DNA of 25,668 nt from the NCBI GenBank assembly GCA_001771735.1, contig MEUM01000082.1, forward strand, positions 1 to 25,668, written 5' to 3'. How positions within the stretch are numbered: position 1 is the stretch's first letter; each line of letters opens with the position of its first letter. Shown one piece after another: positions 15,061-25,668 of the stretch. The DNA is from a candidate division WOR-3 bacterium RBG_13_43_14. Its GTDB lineage: Bacteria; Hydrothermota; Tepidihabitantia; SM23-42. Under the pieces are notes generated by a model, which did no database searches, was not told the origin of the DNA, and saw only the letters and a program-made list of their open reading frames with translations. The position numbers and the translations under genes were made by a program.

Positions 15061-16659
15061 TTAGTAATTTCTAATAATCGTCGGCGTGATAAAGATCAGT
15101 AATTCCCGGTCCTCAAAAGTAGTCGTTGTTTCCCGGAATAATGCTCCCAGAATCGGTATGGATTTGAGTATCGGGATACCGCGCACGCTTTTGGTCTCTT
15201 TGCGGCGGATAAAACCACCGATAACAACGGTATTGCCGTCTTTAACCAGGACTTTGGAATCAGCTTCGGATGTAGTAATGATCGGGCGGCCGGCAAGCGC
15301 CGAAGCACGATCAAGTTCACTGACCTCAGCATGTATATCCATTGTGATCTCTTCAAGCGAATTGATATGGGGCGTAACCTCAAGTTTTGTACCGACGGTA
15401 TAGAATTGGATCACAGTATTACCGGAAATATCACGGGTAGGGATTCCGAAACGCTGACCACCGAGTATCGATGCCTGTATATTATCGACTGCGGTTATTC
15501 TGGGTGAAGAGATGGTTTGTGCCTTGCCGTTCTCTTCAAGCATATTGATAAACATATTGATCTGGGCGAGCGATGGAACCGTACCAATATTGAAAATGCT
15601 GTAACCAACGATTGATGGATTCTGATTGCTGACTATTTCACCGCGGATGACTCGGCTTTCAAGACCTTTTAAGGTCCAGTCGATCCCTAGTCCTTTCGAT
15701 GTCGAAGCGTCAAGATCGACCACCTTGGCCATGATCTCGACCTGCGGAGTCGGCGTATCGAGAAGTTTAACCAGCTGTTCGATCTTGTTGTGTATCGGAT
15801 CGACCTCAGTTACGACAATCGAATTGGTCCGTTCGTCGACATTGGCTTTGCCTTTTGGCGACAGCATCGCTGCAATCTTGTTCAGCATTTTGGCTGGATC
15901 CGCAAACTCAAGTTTATAAATCTTGGATGATGTCGGTAGATCATAATCCTGCTTGTCAAGATTGTCGGCAGTATCGACCCTGATCACACCAGGATCTTCC
16001 CGGTAAGCGTAACCAGAAGCTTTTAGAATAATATCTAATGCCTGACGCCAGGGCACGTTGTGCAATCTAACCGTAACCGTGCCTTTGACATCTTTGCCAG
16101 CGACGATATTCATTCCCGAATATTCAGCAAGTGCGCGCAAAACGGTTAGAATGTCGGCGTTCTCAAGGTCGATCGAAATCGGTCGCCCGGTAATCGTTGC
16201 GGTTGGTTTTGGCGTTGGTGCAGGAACGTTGGTCTCCAGAGTCGGTGTGGCAACTATTTCAGAACCGACTGAATGCCATTCAGCAAAAGGCATGGCCTGA
16301 CCAGTAAGTACGGTTAGTACAAAATTATTTTCTTCGGTCAGGGTTAAATAAGAGTAATCATTGTCAAGGGTTGCGACCACACGAATAAGATCGCTTTGCT
16401 CTGTGAATCCGGTAACGGTGATTTCTTTCACCCCGCCACGGTTCACGGCAAATTTCTTACCAACTAATGAGCTCGATACTCCCGAACAATCTATAACAAC
16501 TCTTGCCGGGTTCTTTAAGCTGAAGGAATTGGCAACGAATGGTGCATCGGCAACGACTGAAAGTTTTGTATTGACACCCTCAGAAGCGACCACTATATCT
16601 TTTATTACTGCACCACCGGCCAGGGAAATTACCAAGCTCAGAATTAAAATATTCCTCAT
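15061..16659 (-). CDS. pilQ: Type IV pilus secretin (AMIN + N domains + secretin)
   Basis: Signal peptide, AMIN-like L.NP.RVVID, ISIDLENADI..VLR.LAE, VDERTNSIVV, VGTKLEVTPHI, LKSIPILGALFR, ELLIFITPTI. Confidence 0.93.
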   Translation of the reverse strand: MRNILILSLVISLAGGAVIKDIVVASEGVNTKLSVVADAPFVANSFSLKNPARVVIDCSGVSSSLVGKKFAVNRGGVKEITVTGFTEQSDLIRVVATLDNDYSYLTLTEENNFVLTVLTGQAMPFAEWHSVGSEIVATPTLETNVPAPTPKPTATITGRPISIDLENADILTVLRALAEYSGMNIVAGKDVKGTVTVRLHNVPWRQALDIILKASGYAYREDPGVIRVDTADNLDKQDYDLPTSSKIYKLEFADPAKMLNKIAAMLSPKGKANVDERTNSIVVTEVDPIHNKIEQLVKLLDTPTPQVEIMAKVVDLDASTSKGLGIDWTLKGLESRVIRGEIVSNQNPSIVGYSIFNIGTVPSLAQINMFINMLEENGKAQTISSPRITAVDNIQASILGGQRFGIPTRDISGNTVIQFYTVGTKLEVTPHINSLEEITMDIHAEVSELDRASALAGRPIITTSEADSKVLVKDGNTVVIGGFIRRKETKSVRGIPILKSIPILGALFRETTTTFEDRELLIFITPTIIRNY

Positions 16660-16671
16660 ATATTACCTCCT

Positions 16672-17082
16672 TTACTTTTCGTTTGGTTGAAGTCTGAGTT
16701 CATACTTGGTAACAACACCAGCGTGGACAATTTCGAAAATAATCGATTGACGATTTATTTCCTTTACTTTTCCACCGGCAACTTTGTCACCTCTCTTAAG
16801 GATATAACCATTGTTTACTCCATCTTTGACCAATGCATAATATCCTTTGTCTCCCCATAGTATCCCGATCAATGTTAAATTTTCGACACTGAGGTGACTT
16901 GCCTTTCCACCTTCGGATAGGTCCCATCCAAGTAAAGGTACAAATGGATCCCGACGACCCGATTCCTTATAATCCCATTTTTCAACTGGGAAAAGAGTAT
17001 CGGTTGAGGTGGCAGTAGTTTCTGGTGCCTGGTTAACGAGTAAAATGGCGAAAGCAATATTACTTACGAGGTGGCACAGCAT
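16672..17082 (-). CDS. pilP: PilP-like pilus assembly protein, 136 aa from ATG 17082
   Basis: Y..SGRRDPFVP motif, LIGILWG, ALVKD, position between pilO and pilQ. SD AAGGAGG before ATG 17082. Confidence 0.75.
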   Translation of the reverse strand: MLCHLVSNIAFAILLVNQAPETTATSTDTLFPVEKWDYKESGRRDPFVPLLGWDLSEGGKASHLSVENLTLIGILWGDKGYYALVKDGVNNGYILKRGDKVAGGKVKEINRQSIIFEIVHAGVVTKYELRLQPNEK

Positions 17083-17632
17083 GGGGCACCTCCTTTCCTT
17101 GTGCAACTGTATAGGTTGCGGCACTCAGTGTTGCCTCAATGCTTCTATCCTTACCAGCTTTGATAACCACCGAGGGCACATTGACTATTCTGGCCAGGTT
17201 TCCGACATTCGATAAAAATCGGCCGAGTTGATGATAACCGCAGACGATTTTTATCTGAACCGGTATTTCTGAATAATTCGTTTTTAACTGTGGAGCACTG
17301 GGTTTGAAAAGCAAGAAACTTACACCGGCCTTAGTCCCGGAATTCGATATCTGCTGTATGAGCGATGGGATCTCTTTTGCTTTGGGTAACATTTCTTTAG
17401 CTTTTTCCCATTCTAATTCCAGTCGCGCGATCTTGGCTTGAAGTTCCGGTAGACGTTCACGTGCAGCTTCAGCTTTTTGAACCTCGATCCGCAATGAATC
17501 GCGCATCGTGATCAGGTTTTTGATCTTCTTTTGATTGGGCTGATAGAGCAACTGGAAAAACGCGATGAGTATGATTATTAGTAAAACGAAAAACAAAATT
17601 AATTTTTGGGTTTTCGGTTCACGTATATTCAT
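17060..17632 (-). CDS. pilO: Type IV pilus assembly protein PilO
   Basis: N-terminal TM helix and coiled coil, LPKAKEIPSLIQQI, GYHQLGRFLSNVGNLARIVNV. Confidence 0.92.
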   Translation of the reverse strand: MNIREPKTQKLILFFVLLIIILIAFFQLLYQPNQKKIKNLITMRDSLRIEVQKAEAARERLPELQAKIARLELEWEKAKEMLPKAKEIPSLIQQISNSGTKAGVSFLLFKPSAPQLKTNYSEIPVQIKIVCGYHQLGRFLSNVGNLARIVNVPSVVIKAGKDRSIEATLSAATYTVAQGKEVPHAVPPRK

Positions 17633-17634
17633 GA

Positions 17635-18234
17635 TTACCTCGCAGTTGTTGTTTCGAAACCTAAACTAGCCGTGAGAGTGAATTCCATCATTTCCTGTTT
17701 TTCGACAGCTTTTTTCTCCAGTACAGTGAGATCGACATTATTGATATATGGTGATTCTTCAAGACGGTTCATGAATTCAGCGACCAGCAGGTTCGAGGCA
17801 GTATATCCTTTCAAGGTCAATGCCGATTGGGTCGCATCGAGAGTCGTTAACCACGTGAATTCAGGCACACGACTGGATATTTCATCAAGAATATGGGCAA
17901 TAAAGAAACGGTTACGATTCAGTTCTTTTATCGGAGCAATAAGCGCAGCAAGCTCACGTTCTCGGCGTTCCAGACTATCGACGGTCGCCTTGTATACCTT
18001 AAGCTCTTCGAGCTTGGCATTCAGCTGTGAAATATTGTTGTTAAGGCTACCCATGCGACTCGTCTGAAGCAGCAACAGCACGACAATTATCAAGACAACG
18101 ATTGTGCCGCCAGCTATGTAGGCAAAGGTTGCCTGGATCGAAGGTAGTTTTATCCCTGCGCTTGGTGCTTTTGCTGCTTTGCGCTTTGGCGCCCCTCCTT
18201 TCTTGGCAGATGGCGCTAAATTTATTTTTATCAT
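17635..18234 (-). CDS. pilN: Type IV pilus assembly protein PilN
   Basis: MIKINL.P start, TM helix, coiled coil, ILDEIS..VP...WL, VAEFMNRLEESP. Confidence 0.92.
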   Translation of the reverse strand: MIKINLAPSAKKGGAPKRKAAKAPSAGIKLPSIQATFAYIAGGTIVVLIIVVLLLLQTSRMGSLNNNISQLNAKLEELKVYKATVDSLERRERELAALIAPIKELNRNRFFIAHILDEISSRVPEFTWLTTLDATQSALTLKGYTASNLLVAEFMNRLEESPYINNVDLTVLEKKAVEKQEMMEFTLTASLGFETTTAR

Positions 18235-19274
18235 TACTCCCCCCTTAAAGCCAAACCAGTGGCTTGGGCTAGGATTGGTCCAAGGACATCAGCCCCTTCT
18301 GGACCGAACATGGTTGGATCATAAATAATATTCTTGAAGGGATTTAATAATTCAATTTGTATACCAAGTCTGCGCTTCAAATATTCTACTAGATTCGGGA
18401 TCAGGGAGCCGCCGCCCGAGAAGAACATCCGGGACACTTTTTCTTCACCGGTAACACTGCTTAGGAATTGCAAGCTGCGTTCGATCTGGGTGCCGAGATC
18501 ACTGACAAAGGATTCAAAAACACCCTGAACCGAGTCTTGAGATGCGCCGACCGGGATCGTACCCTTCACGGCATTTGCCGCATCTTCATAATTAAAACCA
18601 ACTTCTTTCTGGAGTTTGCTGATAAAAGCATTTACTCCATAATAAACATCTCGGGCAGATAAAGATGAACCGCCTTTCATAACATTGATGACGGTCATGC
18701 CTGCGCCAATATGAATTAATCCGATGGTTTCGTCAGAGGTCGGTGAATAATTGAATTCATAAGCATTCTGTATGGCAAACGCGGTCGTATCGACGATTAT
18801 CGGTGTTAAATTCAGTTCTTTTAACAATGAACTTAAATTATTGATAAGTTCATTCTTGGCTGCAACCAGAATGACTTCCTGCTGGTTTTCGCCGAAATTT
18901 GGATTTACGATATCAAAATCAAGCGTGACCTCATTGATATCGAATGGAACGTATTGTTCCGCTTCCCATTTGATCTGCTCGCGTGTATCCGCTTCGTTCA
19001 TCCGGTCCATTGTAATTCTCTTAATGATTACATCTCGGCCGGCAAGTCCGATCACAACATCTTTGGTTGTGAAATTGCGACTTTCAAGTACAGTTCGGAT
19101 CGAATCTAAAACTGCCTCCCGATCAATAATCTCTCCCTCCACGATCGCATCAGGTAAGACCTTTGAAATCCCGTAATTAAGAAGTTTTTTATTCTTACCT
19201 GTACTAAGTTCTACCATTTTGGTTTGACTGGATCCAATGTCAAGACCGATAACCTTTTTTTTCTTTCCGAACAT
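18234..19274 (-). CDS. pilM: Type IV pilus assembly protein PilM, 346 aa from ATG 19274
   Basis: IGLDIGSSQTKMVEL, EAEQYVPF, SGGGS.IPNL, A.ATGLALRG. SD AAGGAG before ATG 19274. The ORF-track start at 19340 lies upstream of the promoter. Confidence 0.94.
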   Translation of the reverse strand: MFGKKKKVIGLDIGSSQTKMVELSTGKNKKLLNYGISKVLPDAIVEGEIIDREAVLDSIRTVLESRNFTTKDVVIGLAGRDVIIKRITMDRMNEADTREQIKWEAEQYVPFDINEVTLDFDIVNPNFGENQQEVILVAAKNELINNLSSLLKELNLTPIIVDTTAFAIQNAYEFNYSPTSDETIGLIHIGAGMTVINVMKGGSSLSARDVYYGVNAFISKLQKEVGFNYEDAANAVKGTIPVGASQDSVQGVFESFVSDLGTQIERSLQFLSSVTGEEKVSRMFFSGGGSLIPNLVEYLKRRLGIQIELLNPFKNIIYDPTMFGPEGADVLGPILAQATGLALRGE

Positions 19275-19305
19275 AATCACTCCTTGTTTTTGTACATTTC
19301 GTTCA

Positions 19306-19333
19306 ATTATATATATATTAGATAATCTGTCAA
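19306..19333 (-). promoter_or_regulatory. sigma70-type promoter of pilM containing a TA dinucleotide run
   Basis: TTGACA (19333-19328), 16-nt spacer, TATAAT (19311-19306). An 11-nt alternating TA run (19308-19318) spans the -10 and spacer. Confidence 0.75.
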
Positions 19334-19507
19334 GAGGCAATTAAAAGGGAAACCGTTAATCACTTAAAATATCGGTTTAGCGTGAATGGTCAATTTTATA
19401 ATAATTTCTGATAAAATCGGAAATCTTTGATTTCAGAGCTTTTAATAATTTTTTTGACGAAAATGAATAGTTCAAAATTCCTAACCTTTATCAAGTTATA
19501 TTTCCGA

Positions 19508-20611
19508 TCATTCCCGGAAATTAAAGGATGACCGGCATTTTTGTGTGAATCCGGCAAGTTTTCCCGATTTAATTGAGCTTCGTAACTGACCCATTAATTT
19601 TATATAAAAGTGTAGATTGTGGTAGCTGACCAGGCGTCCGGCCAATGCTTCGCCGGCATTGAAAAGATGCCGTATATAGCCCCGAGAAAAATTACGACAA
19701 GTAAAGCAGGTACATTCAGGATCAATCGGAGCCGTATCCTGAGCATATCGGCTCGCTTTGACTATGATTTTGCCTCCAGTAGTGAAGGCCATGCCAGTTC
19801 GTCCATTCCGGGTTGGCAGCACACAGTCGAAAAGGTCAACGCCCCGGCTTACTGCTTCTACAATATCTTCAGGATATCCAGCACCCATTAAATAGCGGAT
19901 TTTTTTAACTGGTATTTCCTGATTTACTTCAAAAACCATTTCCTGGGTCAGGCTGGAAGGTTCGCCGATCATTAATCCTCCGATACCATATCCGGGAAAA
20001 TCAAGATCAACGAGACGCCGTGCGCATTCGCGCCTTAAATCCTTGTAGGTAGCGCCCTGTATTATTCCAAAAATATTTTTGGTCGATCCTTTTATGCTGC
20101 GTTTTGCCCATTGCAGCGTACGTTCAACTGCTAATCGGGCATCGAGAACCGAAGATGGATAGCCAGTGAAAAAATCAAGGCACATTGCGATATCCGAACC
20201 AAGTTCTTTTTGTATGCTGACCGCGAGTTCGGGACTGAGAAAATGCCTGGAACCATCAAGATGTGATGAAAATTCAATACCATCATCGTTGACTTTCCGT
20301 AATGTATTTAACGAATAGGCCTGAAATCCTCCCGAATCAGTAAGAATAGCGCGGTCCCATGACATAAAGCGGTGGAGACCACCGAATTGCTTTATCAAAG
20401 GTGAGGTTGGTCGCAGCATTAAATGATATGTGTTGCAGACGATTATCTGTACGCCAATTTTTTTTAACGATGCTGGATCGATCATTTTTACCGTCGCCTG
20501 GGTCGCGACTGGCATAAAATTCGGCGTATCGACCGAGTAATTTTTTAGTTTAATTATACCAACCCGTGCGGCACTTGCCGGATCTTGATGGATTATTTTA
20601 AAGCGAATCAC
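19508..20611 (-). CDS. tgt: tRNA-guanine transglycosylase (bacterial type)
   Basis: TPNFMPVAT, NTYHL, TDSGGFQ, GIIQG, D.FDCVLPTRNGR, Zn site C.C..C and HNL. GTG start overlaps the upstream stop (GTGA). Confidence 0.96.
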   Translation of the reverse strand: MIRFKIIHQDPASAARVGIIKLKNYSVDTPNFMPVATQATVKMIDPASLKKIGVQIIVCNTYHLMLRPTSPLIKQFGGLHRFMSWDRAILTDSGGFQAYSLNTLRKVNDDGIEFSSHLDGSRHFLSPELAVSIQKELGSDIAMCLDFFTGYPSSVLDARLAVERTLQWAKRSIKGSTKNIFGIIQGATYKDLRRECARRLVDLDFPGYGIGGLMIGEPSSLTQEMVFEVNQEIPVKKIRYLMGAGYPEDIVEAVSRGVDLFDCVLPTRNGRTGMAFTTGGKIIVKASRYAQDTAPIDPECTCFTCRNFSRGYIRHLFNAGEALAGRLVSYHNLHFYIKLMGQLRSSIKSGKLAGFTQKCRSSFNFRE

Positions 20612-21738
20612 TTCATTACTTCTTTGCCCGCAAAACTACGATTGAGCGCGAATTCATTTATATCGTAGGGCGGTTTCCCATTTAATATATATTCCGCAGC
20701 TAGCCACCCGATCTCCGGTCCGAGCATAAAACCGTGGCCACACATGCCGCCGACGATCCAGAATCCTCTAATTTGTGTTTGATCAAGGATCGGATTGCCA
20801 TCTGGGGTCATTTCATATGAACCGGACCATTGGCGCATGATCTTGACTTTTTCAAGCTTGGGGATAAGCCGCGCCATGCGTCGTCCCATTTCTTTTGCGA
20901 ATTCAAAAGAAGTTCCAAGGTCAATACCTGGTACATTGGGTTTAGGTGTGTAGCACCCGATAATGCTGCCTTTGTGGTATTTCTGATTAAAATAGCAGCC
21001 GTCATCCCGATAGTCGACGATCATCATATCAAAAAATCTTTCGATCGGCTCGGTTATGATCGCCTCATGACGTTCCGGGTATATCGGGATATCAATATTC
21101 AATAACCGGGCGATACTACCGCAAAAAGGTCCAGCTGCATTGATCACGACTGGCGCATAATATTTCTCGCCGGTGCTGGTTGATATCGAATCAACCCGTT
21201 CATTTTTAATACCAATGCTTTGAACTTCGGTTCCAGTAAAAACTTTTCCCGAATGAGCAATATGGCGTGCGTAGGCATCAACTATCAAAAATGGATTTGC
21301 CTGACCATCACTTGGGCAATGTGCACCACCAAGCAATCCTTGCGTATTTATACCCGGTACTAGACGCTCAATTTCTTTTACATCGACATATCGGACATCG
21401 AGTTCCATTTCTTGCTGTAGTTTTATCAGTTCAAGATAGACCTGTTTCTTGTTTTCATCATGGGCAAGAAATAGATAACCTCCCGGATGGAACTCTACGT
21501 CCTGTTGTAATTCATTGGCCATTACTTTGAATTTCTTGACTGATTCCATGGCAACCTTAATGCTGAGTTCAGTTGAAAATTGCTGTCGGATACCTCCAAT
21601 ACAACGTCCGGTCGATCCGGCGGTCAGATAATCTTTTTCAAAAAGAAAAACCTTTAGTCCTTTTCGAGCTAAATAATAACCGGCGGCAGTGCCAATAATA
21701 CCACCACCGATTATTATAACATCAGCTGTATTGTCCAT
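20608..21738 (-). CDS. FAD-dependent oxidoreductase, DAO / sarcosine oxidase beta-like, 376 aa
   Basis: IIGGGIIG Rossmann motif, GSTGRCIGGIRQQF, WSGSYEMTPDGNPI, GHGFMLGP. Confidence 0.88.
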   Translation of the reverse strand: MDNTADVIIIGGGIIGTAAGYYLARKGLKVFLFEKDYLTAGSTGRCIGGIRQQFSTELSIKVAMESVKKFKVMANELQQDVEFHPGGYLFLAHDENKKQVYLELIKLQQEMELDVRYVDVKEIERLVPGINTQGLLGGAHCPSDGQANPFLIVDAYARHIAHSGKVFTGTEVQSIGIKNERVDSISTSTGEKYYAPVVINAAGPFCGSIARLLNIDIPIYPERHEAIITEPIERFFDMMIVDYRDDGCYFNQKYHKGSIIGCYTPKPNVPGIDLGTSFEFAKEMGRRMARLIPKLEKVKIMRQWSGSYEMTPDGNPILDQTQIRGFWIVGGMCGHGFMLGPEIGWLAAEYILNGKPPYDINEFALNRSFAGKEVMK

Positions 21739-21741
21739 GAT

Positions 21742-21792
21742 AAGTTCTAAATACTAATAACAAGCACTAAATTCTAAGCACGAAATCCTAAA
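21742..21792. repeat. Heptamer tandem array (CTAAAT/CTAAGC type)
   Basis: ..TTCTAAA TACTAAT AACAAGC ACTAAAT TCTAAGC ACGAAAT CCTAAA. Shares the 16-mer AAGCACTAAATTCTAA (21762-21777) with 23593-23608. Confidence 0.7.
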
Positions 21793-21894
21793 CCCCGTCA
21801 AATACAAAAAAAGATTATGGCTCATGCTGAAAAAACAGTTATTACCCTTATTGATATTATTCCCTTGTGATATATGCAATTTGAACGGGGTAAA
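21789..21894. mobile_element. ~100-bp MITE-like element with short terminal inverted repeats
   Basis: TAAA|CCCCGTCAAAT ... ATTTGAACGGGG|TAAA: TIRs differ by one indel, TAAA direct repeat on both flanks, AT-rich non-coding interior. Confidence 0.6.
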
Positions 21895-21917
21895 CAATAT
21901 TTAATTTCCAATTTTTT

Positions 21918-22047
21918 AAATTCCAAACAAATTCTAAGTCCCCCTCTATCCCCCTTTGTTAAAGGGGGATAGAGGGGGATTGTAAAAGATCTATTCATTG
22001 GGCCGGGATCAGCTTTTGGTTGAAGGATTTCGTATTTCGAGATTAGT
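21918..22047. repeat. 130-bp repeat, copy A, with a perfect 19-bp hairpin
   Basis: Direct repeat of 23648-23777 (offset 1730; 11 mismatches in 130 by hand count). Hairpin TCCCCCTCTATCCCCCTTT-GTT-AAAGGGGGATAGAGGGGGA (21939-21979). Confidence 0.9.
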
Positions 22048-22050
22048 ATT

Positions 22051-23301
22051 CTAGTATCCATACTGTGCAATAATCTCGTCTTTTTTCTTACCCAGGATCT
22101 GATACTTTGCACCGATCTTCGTGAATGCGGCGATCGCTTTATCAAGATGTTCTTTTTCGTGGGCAGCTGATACCTGTACTCGGATCCGCGCTTGCCCTTT
22201 AGGCACGACTGGGAATGAAAAACCGATTACATATATACCTTCTTCATAGAGATCGCGCGCCATATCCTGTGCGAGTTTAGCATTGTATAGCATTATCGGT
22301 ACGATCGGGTGAACGCCTTCACGGATATCGAATCCAGCGGCGGTCATTTTATCTCGGAAATATTTTGTATTTTTTTCAAGTTTGTCCCGACGGTCAGTAG
22401 TTTTAGAGATCAGATCGATTACTTTATTTGCCGCCGCAACAATAACCGGGGGCATGGTATTGGAAAATAAATAGGGACGCGCCCGTTGCCGGCAAAGATC
22501 CACGATCTCTTTTCGTCCGCTCACACATCCGCCGGACGCGCCACCTAGGGCTTTGCCCAAGGTTGTCGTAATGATATCGATACGCCCGATCACACCACAG
22601 TGTTCATGAGTACCTCGACCGTTTTTACCCATGAAACCGGTCGCATGAGAGTCATCAACCATGACCATTGCATCATATTTTTCAGCCAGGTCACAAATCT
22701 CGTCGAGCTTGGCAATATCACCATCCATTGAAAAAACACCATCAGTTATGATCATTCTCAATCGTAGGTTCTGGGTTTCCTTCAATTTTTCCTCGAGATG
22801 ATCCATGTTCGAATGCTTGTAATTATAAAGCTGGGCTTTACAAAGCCTCATTCCGTCAACGATCGATGCATGAACCAGCCGGTCAGAGATCATAGCGTCT
22901 TCTTTATCAAGCACGACATCGAAAACACCGGCATTCGCATCCATACATGAAGGAAAGAGTATGGTATCCTCAGTCCCGAGAAATTTGGTTAACTTGGTTT
23001 CGAGCTCCTTATGAATATCCTGGGTACCACAGATAAAACGCACTGATGACATACCGTAGCCACGTTCATTTAAACCTTGATGAGCGGCTTCGATGACTTC
23101 CGGATGACTTGATAACCCAAGATAATTGTTAGCACAGAAATTCAACACTTCCTTCGGTTTGGCGCCGACGGGAAACTCGACATTGATATTAGCTCCCTGG
23201 GGCGATTCGATATAACGTTCTTCTTTAAAAGTTCCGGCGGTATTGATGTTTTTCAATTCATTTGAGAAAAAATCCCGGGCTTTGTTGCTATAGGCCATCA
23301 T
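22051..23301 (-). CDS. kbl: Glycine C-acetyltransferase (2-amino-3-ketobutyrate CoA ligase), PLP alpha-oxoamine synthase family
   Basis: [58 protein letters not shown] (PLP Lys), [25 protein letters not shown]. Confidence 0.93.
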
Positions 23302-23307
23302 GACCTC

Positions 23308-23559
23308 CTATGCTACATTGAATTCTTTGAGTAGATTGATCATATTGTTTACTGAATCGAATGCCTCGGTCGTGGCTTTTTCATCCGGAATCGAGATCTG
23401 GAATTTTTTCTCAAGAAAGGTTTTAAGCGCTACCATTGAGAATGAATCAACGATGCCGCTTGAGATTAATTGAGTACTCTCATCAATCTCTTCTGAATCA
23501 TCATCCAGATATTCCTTTTTGACATAATCGATTATCAATTTTTTTAAATCGTCGCTCAT
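23308..23559 (-). CDS. Acyl carrier protein (phosphopantetheine-binding), 83 aa
   Basis: Acidic small protein with L.SSGIVDSF (Ppant Ser), FLEKKFQI.IPDE, F.SVN.M. SD GGAGG. Confidence 0.88.
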   Translation of the reverse strand: MSDDLKKLIIDYVKKEYLDDDSEEIDESTQLISSGIVDSFSMVALKTFLEKKFQISIPDEKATTEAFDSVNNMINLLKEFNVA

Positions 23560-23570
23560 TTTACCTCCCT

Positions 23571-23612
23571 CTAAAATTAAATTCTAAATCCTAAGCACTA
23601 AATTCTAAATAA
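23571..23612. repeat. Heptamer tandem array
   Basis: TTCTAAA TCCTAAG CACTAAA TTCTAAA directly upstream of the ACP ribosome-binding site. Confidence 0.7.
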
Positions 23613-23654
23613 TATCTTCAGCCTAAGGCTGATCCGCCTATGGCGGAAAATTCC
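23613..23654 (-). repeat. Double-hairpin intergenic repeat, copy 3
   Basis: Minus strand reads GGAATTTTCCGCCATAGGCGGATCAGCCTTAGGCTGAAGAT; two adjacent hairpins. Confidence 0.75.
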
Positions 23655-23777
23655 AAACAAATTCTAAATCCCCCTCTATCCCCCTTTATTAAAGGGGGAA
23701 GAAGGGGGATTATAAAAGATTTATTCATTGGGCTGGGATCAGCTTTTGGTTGAAGGATTTAGTATTTCGTGCTTAGT
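23648..23777. repeat. 130-bp repeat, copy B
   Basis: Direct repeat of 21918-22047; hairpin 23669-23709 has an internal mismatch bubble. Confidence 0.9.
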
Positions 23778-23779
23778 CA

Positions 23780-25486
23780 TTAGTCGTTCTCCAGTGTGCT
23801 GGTATCGCCGATCTCCTCGCCCCACTCTTTAGCCCGCAGCATTCGGCGCATGATCTTGCCGCTGCGCGTTTTAGGTAATGAAGATACGAATTCGATTGCC
23901 TGAGGCATGGCCAGCGGCGAAAGTTTTTTGCGGATAAAGTTCATAATATCGAGTTCTAAATCTGCGTTCGGCTCATGACCAGGTTTTAGAGCAATAAATG
24001 CCTTAACGACTTCCATGTTCACTGGGTCTGGTTTGCCGACCGCGGCGGATTCAGCAACCGCTGGGTGCTCGAGCAAAGCTGACTCGATTTCAAATGGTCC
24101 GACTAGATGACCAGCCGTATTAATAACATCGTCATCGCGACCCATGAACCAGAAATAGCCTTCGTTATCAATACTGGCACGATCGCCGCATATGTACCAA
24201 CCGTTCTTGAATTTTTCATCATATAATTTTTTGTTATTCCAGTAAGTGCGGAACATCGATGGCCAGCCAGGTTTGAGCGCGATCAAACCCACTGTCCCGG
24301 CGGTTTCTATCGGTTCAAATTTCTTTGGATCAACGACAACTGCAGTAATTCCTGGAAATGGTGTGCCCATGGAGCCTGGTTTTACCGTCATGCCAGGAAA
24401 GTTCGTGATCACTATCGCTCCGGTTTCAGTTTGCCAGTAGGAATCGTGAAAAGGTTTTTTAAATACTTCCTGCGACCAGATCACGGCTTCAGCATTTAGG
24501 GGTTCGCCAACACTTATCAAATGGCGCAGGCAGGACATATCATGAGCTTTGACCGGTCCTGCGCCTTCTTTCATTAAAAGACGGATTGCAGTCGGTGCTG
24601 TGTACCATATTGTAACCTTATGTCTTTCAATGAAACTATACCATTTATCAGTGTTGAATCCCGAATCTAGCACAACCTGAGTAACGCCACTTGCCCAGGG
24701 TCCAATGATTCCGTAGGATGTACCGGTCACCCAGCCCGGGTCAGCAGTACACCAATAAATATCATCGGTGGTCAGATCCAGTGCCCATTTTGCCGTTATA
24801 TGTTGAGCAATAAGCGATGAATGAACATGCATTGCACCTTTTGGTTTTCCAGTAGTACCGGATGTATAATGCAGCACCGAGGGAAATTCCGGACCAGCCT
24901 TATATATGTCGAATTTTTCATTCAATTGCGCTTTTTCCATATTAAAACTGATTTCAAATTTTTCGAGTTTTTTATTCCCCGCGTCGACCACGAATATATA
25001 TTTTAGATCAGGTAATTTATGAAGTATTTTTCTTACTTTTCTAATATGCTTCATAGTGGTAAATATCGCGCAGGTCGACGCGTCCTCAAGCCGGGTGAAC
25101 AGGGCTTCTTCACCGAATGCCGAGAACAACGGCTGAACAATGCCGCCCATTTTCAGCACTCCCAAAAAACTTATGTACAATTCCGGGATACGGTCCATGA
25201 ACAGGCATATTCTTTCCTCAGGTTTGATCCCATTATCGAGCAGGAATTGAGCGATTGCATTGCTGTACAATCTTATATCATTATAGGTATATTTTTTCTT
25301 GTTGCCCTGAAAACCCTCCCAGATCAAGGCTGTTTTGTCCGCCATTCCTTTTTCACAGATCCTCTCGCTGCAATAATACGCAAGATTGTACATACCATCC
25401 TTACCGTATTCGAGTTCTTTAACTGACAACTGCCATTCGAAATTTTTGTATTTTTCCTCATAAGAACCAATATTGCCCATCAACAT
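23780..25486 (-). CDS. acsA: Acetate--CoA ligase-like adenylate-forming enzyme (short AcsA type); start 25486 or 25480
   Basis: HYTSGTTGKPKG, YWCTADPGWVTG, SVGEPLN, YWQTETG, GRDDDVI, PKTRSGKIMRR. SD AAGGAGG is better spaced to ATG 25480. Confidence 0.9.
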   Translation of the reverse strand: MLMGNIGSYEEKYKNFEWQLSVKELEYGKDGMYNLAYYCSERICEKGMADKTALIWEGFQGNKKKYTYNDIRLYSNAIAQFLLDNGIKPEERICLFMDRIPELYISFLGVLKMGGIVQPLFSAFGEEALFTRLEDASTCAIFTTMKHIRKVRKILHKLPDLKYIFVVDAGNKKLEKFEISFNMEKAQLNEKFDIYKAGPEFPSVLHYTSGTTGKPKGAMHVHSSLIAQHITAKWALDLTTDDIYWCTADPGWVTGTSYGIIGPWASGVTQVVLDSGFNTDKWYSFIERHKVTIWYTAPTAIRLLMKEGAGPVKAHDMSCLRHLISVGEPLNAEAVIWSQEVFKKPFHDSYWQTETGAIVITNFPGMTVKPGSMGTPFPGITAVVVDPKKFEPIETAGTVGLIALKPGWPSMFRTYWNNKKLYDEKFKNGWYICGDRASIDNEGYFWFMGRDDDVINTAGHLVGPFEIESALLEHPAVAESAAVGKPDPVNMEVVKAFIALKPGHEPNADLELDIMNFIRKKLSPLAMPQAIEFVSSLPKTRSGKIMRRMLRAKEWGEEIGDTSTLEND

Positions 25487-25492
25487 GCCTCC

Positions 25493-25668
25493 TTACAGAT
25501 CATTTTCCATGATGGTTAAACTAAGCGATAATTGTTTTCTGCGGGTCGTTGAACAATGAATGTTTTTGATTGATCTATCATCGGCGATCTTTTTTAATTC
25601 ACCTTTTAGTGTGATCTTCTCATTGAATTCAATTTCAATATTTTTCCAGAAATATCCTTTTTCCAAAC
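25493..25668 (-). CDS. 3' end of an unidentified protein (..YFWKNIEIEF..TTRRKQLSLSLTIMENDL)
   Basis: Open frame from the window edge to TAA 25495-25493; the stop overlaps the acsA SD. Confidence 0.65.
   Translation of the reverse strand, partial: LEKGYFWKNIEIEFNEKITLKGELKKIADDRSIKNIHCSTTRRKQLSLSLTIMENDL

Follow-up and report, generated by a model that had tools for sequence, protein, structure and literature searches.

A tdh-acpS-acsA-acp-kbl cassette of a candidate division WOR-3 bacterium and its possible role in a carrier-protein-dependent threonine, glycine and acetate pathway

Genes and extent of the cassette

The stretch of DNA studied here, referred to below as the window, comprises bases 1-25668 (25,668 nt) of a 26,192-nt scaffold (contig MEUM01000082.1, assembly GCA_001771735.1) from the 66% complete genome of the candidate division WOR-3 bacterium RBG_13_43_14. 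Its minus strand carries four co-oriented genes for an AcsA-like ligase, an acyl carrier protein (ACP), a glycine C-acetyltransferase (Kbl) and a DAO-family flavoprotein. The AMP-forming acetate ligase of the AcsA family (23780..25486, minus strand; 568 aa; NF003313), a proposed acetate:ACP ligase, is followed by a dedicated acidic carrier protein (23308..23559, minus strand; 83 aa; PF00550) with Ser39 in the motif GIVDSFSMV, and then by a Kbl of an ACP-linked clade (22051..23301, minus strand; 416 aa; TIGR01822). A previous interpretation, made from the letters of the DNA alone (the sequence-only reading), had proposed that acetate or a short acyl group is loaded onto this ACP and condensed with glycine to an aminoketone. 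Its description of an upstream gene, the ligase, the ACP and Kbl as co-oriented, of a 6-nt spacing between acp and kbl, and of the absence of adjacent fab genes was borne out by our analysis.

The upstream gene, whose identity had been left to be established, corresponds to the C-terminal half of acpS (25493..25668, minus strand) and is thus part of the cassette; acpS encodes a dedicated phosphopantetheinyl transferase. The 5' half of the gene lies in an N gap past the window, and its stop codon is found 6 nt ahead of acsA. A hidden Markov model (HMM) of 40 AcpS proteins from related loci matched this gene with E=1.6e-10 in a search of all six-frame open reading frames of the genome, and the genes that occupy the acpS position in relatives pass TIGR00556. 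The scaffold continues for 524 nt past the window; there, beyond two N gaps and on the same strand as the cassette, tdh fragments are present (scaffold 25849-26192) that read as a Zn-dependent threonine dehydrogenase (Tdh) with 51% identity to the Tdh of a relative. The earlier remark that no tdh is adjacent holds inside the window, but not on the scaffold. Because the upstream gene is acpS and Tdh fragments lie just past the window, the true unit is tdh-acpS-acsA-acp-kbl, which is larger than first noted.

The ACP passes PF00550 (23.4 bits; cut-off 20.8) and scores below every named ACP model, including that for the fatty-acid AcpP (TIGR00517; 26.9 vs 70.45 bits). It contains 18 Asp/Glu and 9 Lys/Arg residues, is 73-88% identical across the order, and its named close homologs stem mostly from candidate division WOR-3; the housekeeping AcpP is encoded separately and adjoins fabF. 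The Ser39 motif (GIVDSF), with D38-S39 included, is invariant in 35 sequences. On the simplest reading, Ser39 is the predicted site of phosphopantetheinylation and would be armed by the dedicated AcpS. At least two copies of AcpS were found in 27 of the 29 genomes of the order that possess the cassette, while each of the 12 genomes that lack it has one.

Distribution of the cassette and the CoA sites of its enzymes

The comparison within the order covered 41 genomes, and the locus survey covered 81 distinct ACP loci. ACP and ligase are present in exactly the same 29 of the 41 genomes. Nine of the remaining 12 possess an ordinary kbl, which directly follows tdh in eight of them; in the ninth the contig is cut. 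The ACP-less relatives thus have a plain tdh-kbl pair at this site, mostly with the same downstream genes, and the nine Kbls are 70-75% identical to the ACP-linked ones. Across the surveyed loci, kbl directly follows acp in 71 of 76 as judged by script, which missed L042, L055 and L157 as overlap or truncation cases. The ligase gene lies at most 4 kb upstream of acp in 74 of 77 loci. A tdh gene no more than 7 kb away is present in 42 of 60 informative loci, and an acpS gene no more than 6 kb away in 37 of 57. Many uncultured bacteria have the gene block; ACP-linked Kbls span about eight phyla, and according to record titles the trio also occurs in Zixibacteria, Ignavibacteria, Eisenbacteria, Bacteroidota, Oligoflexia, Terriglobales and UBP2. 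Within its own phylum the cassette is patchy (32 of 201 genomes). Since the acsA-acp-kbl order, for which the sequence-only reading had suggested a synteny survey, recurs in relatives and in other phyla, it is not a product of chance. At locus L162 the place of tdh is taken by an unrelated threonine dehydrogenase of the short-chain dehydrogenase/reductase (SDR) type (E=1.4e-128 to 7OL1), so that the module is linked with threonine chemistry and not with the neighbourhood of one gene.

In a tree of Kbl proteins, 59 ACP-linked members from all phyla form a single clade (100/100; stem 0.46); outside it stand 12 proteins, nine from the ACP-less relatives and three other Kbls. The Kbl of L061, one gene apart from its ACP, was counted as ACP-linked. 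The Tdh tree groups the proteins by genus and not by the presence of an ACP (6 changes, a value as low as that of about 80 of 500 shuffles), and in the genome pairs G010/G015 and G024/G020 the Tdh proteins are near-identical within the pair while the Kbl types differ. Since Kbl splits by ACP status and Tdh by genus, acpS-acsA-acp and the special kbl are exchanged together; behind an ordinary tdh they come and go as a single block. At four loci (L055, L159, L167 and L230) a second Kbl is present beside the ACP-type enzyme; it falls outside the ACP clade where tested, or is of ordinary length.

The synthase of the window is a true Kbl, as the sequence-only reading had maintained. It scores 630.7 bits with TIGR01822 (curated cut-off 493) and passes none of the models for serine palmitoyltransferase (SPT), with which it reaches 337, 290 and 240 bits against cut-offs of 640, 500 and 670; its closest solved structures are Kbls with 55-58% identity. 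The catalytic residues N58, S191, H144, H219, K250 and R374 (window numbering) are invariant, and N50, V79, H136, S185, H213, K244 and R368 (E. coli Kbl numbering) are found in 59/59 ACP-linked Kbls. With the catalytic residues kept and the SPT models far below cut-off, glycine/acetyl chemistry is expected.

The changes specific to the ACP clade cluster at residues 116-124 and 137-175 of Kbl, with F116, M120, R141, V143, L158, N160, H168 and K172 as diagnostic residues. In a predicted model of the protein, strand 136-140, helix 145-153, strand 157-161 and helix 166-175 follow each other, and the matching strand-helix-strand of the R. capsulatus ALAS forms the adenosyl pocket for the coenzyme A (CoA) thioester, where Lys156 binds the ribose (PMC4615937). 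The position of this Lys156, placed by counting 14 residues from a conserved His, is R150 in E. coli Kbl and L158 in the window. Arg occupies it in 12/12 non-ACP Kbls and a basic residue in 0/59 ACP-linked ones; position 160 (E. coli R152; N160 here) shows the same pattern (Arg in 12/12, basic in 0/59). Position 141 gains Arg or Lys in 59/59 ACP-linked Kbls, and position 172 is Lys in 59/59. E. coli BioF, which according to the title of PDB entry 8DLE was crystallised crosslinked to ACP, has Arg130 and Leu147 at Kbl positions 141 and 158. We infer that the ACP-linked Kbls have lost two basic residues of the CoA adenosine pocket and that this pocket was rebuilt. A predicted complex of the Kbl dimer with ACP scored 0.12 (mark 0.32) and was counted neither for nor against an interaction.

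The ligase contains YWCTADPGWVTG and passes the acetate-family model NF003313 (761 bits; cut-off 729), while the long-chain models failed. Its closest structure is the B. subtilis-type AcsA 9G79; a search of contig records gave no exact match to the ligase. The acetate pocket V253/T254/V326/W351 (reference V310/T311/V386/W414) and the catalytic K544 (K609) are kept, with the W414 equivalent present in 63/63 ligases, so that the assignment as acetate-type in the sequence-only reading stands. At the CoA site, the equivalent of the A8 residue Arg526 (L461 here) is Leu in 63/63 ligases, whereas Bacillus AcsA and E. coli Acs have Arg there; this Arg526 affects CoA kinetics (PMC10455477). The RG motif of the Bacillus enzyme is not kept either (N490 in 63/63; M or L at 491). 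The loop at the CoA nucleotide carries a mean net charge of +6 (n=63) vs 0 in four Bacillales AcsAs, and such a basic loop would suit an acidic carrier.

Plasmid searches revealed a second group of this ligase family in acsA-pdhA-pdhB-pdhC-acp clusters (hereafter pdh-acp), beside pyruvate dehydrogenase E1/E2, on plasmids of Tropicibacter, Sinorhizobium, Desulfotalea and Rhodococcus (L175-L178). As in the WOR-3 cassette, an NF003313-type ligase and an ACP stand there beside an acetyl-generating enzyme; Arg526 is replaced by Leu or Met in 4/4, the Bacillus RG motif has lost its Arg, and the CoA loop is basic (+3.5). Bacillales AcsAs without an adjacent ACP have neither the Arg526 loss nor the basic loop. 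Two different ACP cassettes thus possess the same ligase signature. They differ in that the pdh-acp ligases form a separate clade, perhaps a sister of the Kbl-linked one, with 45-49% identity to the Kbl-linked ligases, in that their ACPs are dissimilar, and in that pyruvate dehydrogenase takes the place of Tdh/Kbl.

As judged from these sequences, it is quite likely that a private phosphopantetheinylated ACP replaces CoA in a pathway of threonine, glycine and acetate, and the proposal of the sequence-only reading that an acetyl group resides on the dedicated ACP is favoured. If Tdh, Kbl and Acs were instead ordinary CoA-dependent enzymes, with ACP and AcpS as passengers or regulatory proteins, one could readily explain why all three enzymes exceed the ordinary family cut-offs and why the ligase is the sole Acs-like match (E<=1e-60) in nearly all genomes of the order. 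We consider this very improbable in view of the exact co-occurrence of ACP and ligase, the conservation of the ACP across the order, the link of one Kbl clade to the ACP and the concentration of changes at both CoA sites. Some of the data nevertheless weigh against a replacement of CoA. The ligase retains R584 of the CoA site, as ordinary CoA dependence would have it, so that use of CoA is compatible with its sequence. Many of the surveyed loci are from close kin, and their counts are not independent. Genome G044 (L079) has acp-kbl of the ACP clade on a 4.7-Mb contig, but no ligase of the cassette clade was found in this genome.

Parts of the cassette resemble known systems. It shares a Zn-type Tdh and a Kbl with its catalytic residues, in one operon, with the Tdh-Kbl pair (E. 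coli kbl-tdh; Cupriavidus, PMC9814548), but here acpS, acsA and acp stand between tdh and kbl, and Kbl belongs to a separate clade whose CoA adenosine pocket appears rebuilt. The AasR-AcpR-SPT system of Rhodobacteria also clusters an adenylating ligase, a dedicated ACP and an alpha-oxoamine synthase; its ligase ignores CoA, and its synthase prefers acyl-ACP (PMC9386255). The layout of the cassette would work like this system, yet it lies outside its membership, having an acetate-type ligase, Kbl and not SPT, a Tdh partner, a dedicated AcpS and no indicated lipid product, and at both CoA sites it differs from an ordinary Kbl and an ordinary AcsA.

The resemblance to aasR-acpR-spt (PMC9386255) is also what speaks for an end product such as the aminoketone of the sequence-only reading, or a sphingoid-like compound, made from acyl-ACP and glycine and tailored by the downstream flavoprotein; moreover, 2-amino-3-ketobutyrate can decarboxylate to aminoacetone (PMC9814548). 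We regard such a product as highly improbable. The Kbl scores 631 bits for Kbl vs 240-337 for the SPT models and the ligase pocket is of acetate size, so that a sphingolipid-like pathway is not supported. Tdh is linked to the cassette in two unrelated forms and, because it belongs to the operon, the product of Kbl is tied to L-threonine. Six ACP-less genomes also have the flavoprotein gene 3' of kbl, it did not turn up at the loci of other phyla, and no tailoring or export genes are conserved at the cassette loci.

Carrier proteins are familiar from the synthesis of lipids, polyketides and the cell envelope. Private catabolic acetyl carriers that are loaded by an AMP-forming acetate ligase exist in citrate lyase (CitC/CitD) and as the ACP of malonate decarboxylase; these carry a phosphoribosyl-dephospho-CoA group, are recycled within one enzyme complex and depend on unrelated ligases. 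In the literature that we searched, we found no description of a tdh-acpS-acsA-acp-kbl cassette, of a pdh-acp cluster (the search for its characterisation was a limited one), or of a small-molecule amino-acid pathway that runs on its own ACP instead of CoA.

Direction of flux and fate of the acetyl group

In the pathway that we propose, AcpS would arm Ser39 of the ACP, Tdh would oxidise L-threonine to 2-amino-3-ketobutyrate, and the special Kbl would cleave this intermediate onto holo-ACP, yielding glycine and acetyl-ACP. The ligase would operate in reverse and convert acetyl-ACP, AMP and pyrophosphate (PPi) to acetate, ATP and ACP. A private pool of acetyl-ACP, kept separate from the acetyl-CoA of the cell, would set the thioester aside for making ATP. 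While the identities of the genes, their synteny and co-occurrence, the clades and the residue changes are results of the sequence comparison, we infer both that the ACP is a substrate of Kbl as well as of the ligase and that flux runs in this sense; the joint claim of a carrier swap and of breakdown (threonine to glycine, acetate and ATP) is a tentative one, to which we give somewhat less than an even chance.

ATP formation from PPi by an AMP-forming Acs has a precedent in Syntrophus (PMC4992975). The AMP-acetyl-CoA synthetase of Syntrophus aciditrophicus works in reverse with AMP and PPi and has an altered CoA-binding loop (PMC4992975, PMC13404658); it differs from the cassette ligase in that its substrate is acetyl-CoA and no carrier protein takes part, and its loop determinants are not transferable to the cassette subfamily. 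Neither AckA nor an ADP-forming synthetase (ACD) was found above cut-off in four single-contig cassette genomes, all of which have a membrane pyrophosphatase (PPase); three of them encode glycine decarboxylase P. Hom and ThrB are kept in five cassette genomes.

Several points weigh against the breakdown direction. The overall reaction is near equilibrium, so that either direction is feasible, and in the DltA/DltC pair the ligase loads the carrier. The ligase-carrier pair AasR/AcpR, too, loads its carrier and does not unload it (PMC9386255). Genome G002, which lacks the ACP, has the same AckA, ACD and PPase profile as the cassette genomes, and all five profiled genomes contain Pta/Ptb-family and weak AckA-family (butyrate-kinase-like) matches, a possible source of ATP. 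Although loop residues bias the Syntrophus Acs (PMC13404658), the Syntrophus loop consensus is also absent from Bacillus AcsA and is therefore not readable in the cassette ligase. Genomes with and without the cassette could not be told apart by their gene content with respect to ThrC, Hom, ThrB, AckA, ACD, PPase and Pta/Ptb.

With the opposite flux, acetate and ATP would load the ACP, Kbl would condense acetyl-ACP with glycine, and Tdh would reduce the product to L-threonine; conversion of ATP to AMP and PPi would keep the private pool highly acetylated and drive threonine synthesis or the assimilation of acetate and glycine. This agrees with the direction of AasR/AcpR (PMC9386255), with the finding that ThrB is not above cut-off in 24 of the 29 cassette genomes and with a gene for the acetate uptake transporter SatP 3' of kbl in L159, and the second Kbl of four loci could handle breakdown. 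However, the cassette is not anticorrelated with ThrC-like, Hom and ThrB genes; 10 of the 12 cassette-less genomes are also without ThrB, the five cassette genomes mentioned above have both Hom and ThrB, and the parallel pdh-acp cassette is left unexplained. We consider flux in this sense rather unlikely. In genus g7 (G007, G014, G017, G019, G021 and G023), Hom and ThrB are encoded close together and no ThrC match was obtained, even in single-contig genomes.

The reaction of pyruvate dehydrogenase is one-way. Because this enzyme can only make the acetyl-thioester, a closed loop would have the pdh-acp ligase working in reverse, and this speaks for breakdown in the WOR-3 cassette as well. The breakdown reading could be one case of a class, which we suggest with considerable reserve: CoA-free modules of substrate-level phosphorylation, in which an acetyl-generating enzyme (Tdh/Kbl here, possibly pyruvate dehydrogenase in the pdh-acp cassette) would pass the acetyl group to a private ACP, and an AMP-forming ligase that receives it would form ATP from AMP and PPi.

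The ligase and Kbl might instead both supply acetyl-ACP to a consumer encoded elsewhere, such as an MBOAT acetyltransferase, fatty-acid priming or an acylating aldehyde dehydrogenase. At L160 an MBOAT gene (L160:2485-3957) follows acsA-acp in place of kbl, distant relatives of the ACP adjoin an AMP-ligase and an MBOAT gene, and an acylating aldehyde dehydrogenase-like gene, possibly for another enzyme of two-carbon thioesters, flanks the cassette at two unrelated loci (L162:1132-2550 and L232:8510-9961). Yet no consumer recurs in the 81 loci, which renders this explanation improbable. Fatty-acid priming was rejected since FabH is nearly universal, being present in 39 of 41 genomes whether or not they have the cassette.

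If threonine breakdown does proceed on the ACP, threonine, glycine and acetate would be linked through a carrier protein, and the cell may make ATP in this way. Database names give an ordinary enzyme for each part, so that metabolic models of WOR-3 and of the other lineages may misread acetate use and ATP yield. The paired Kbls of WOR-3, which occupy one chromosomal site whether or not the ACP is present, make a switch of an alpha-oxoamine synthase from CoA to ACP testable, and the common ligase signature offers an idea that can be tested on the acsA-pdh-acp clusters of cultured bacteria.

Spacers and neighbouring genes

Downstream of the cassette lies the gene for the DAO-family flavoprotein (20608..21738, minus strand; PF01266); among known structures, 1Y56_B is its best match by sequence (E=4.7e-61). 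We rejected it as a tailoring enzyme since it occurs behind kbl without the ACP; it is a lineage neighbour that is probably outside the ACP module. At L159, SatP is accompanied downstream of the cassette by an ADP-forming acyl-CoA synthetase-like gene.

The gaps between acsA and acp (220 nt; 23560..23779) and between kbl and the flavoprotein gene (312 nt; 21739-22050) both contain a dispersed palindromic repeat of 130 bp, and the acsA-acp spacer lies outside the function; in most close relatives it measures only tens of nt. The two copies are 92% identical, the second being located at 21918-22047. The element has a strong C-rich/G-rich hairpin and heptamer-like flanks, and dozens of partial copies occur genome-wide. 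At L070 the same acsA-acp spacer holds a DUF559 endonuclease-like gene, a possible mover of such repeats. Promoter-like sites at the locus were no more frequent than expected by chance, and terminator-like sites did not help to place the operon ends.

Within 15061-20611 of the window, tgt overlaps the flavoprotein gene by 4 nt and is followed, as judged by inspection, by a pilM-N-O-P-Q-like type IV pilus set; a perfect TTGACA-16-TATAAT promoter-like site is present on the minus strand at 19333-19306. A second alpha-oxoamine synthase with 34% identity to Kbl is encoded elsewhere in the genome (G000:C88:8006-9067) and is present in most relatives.

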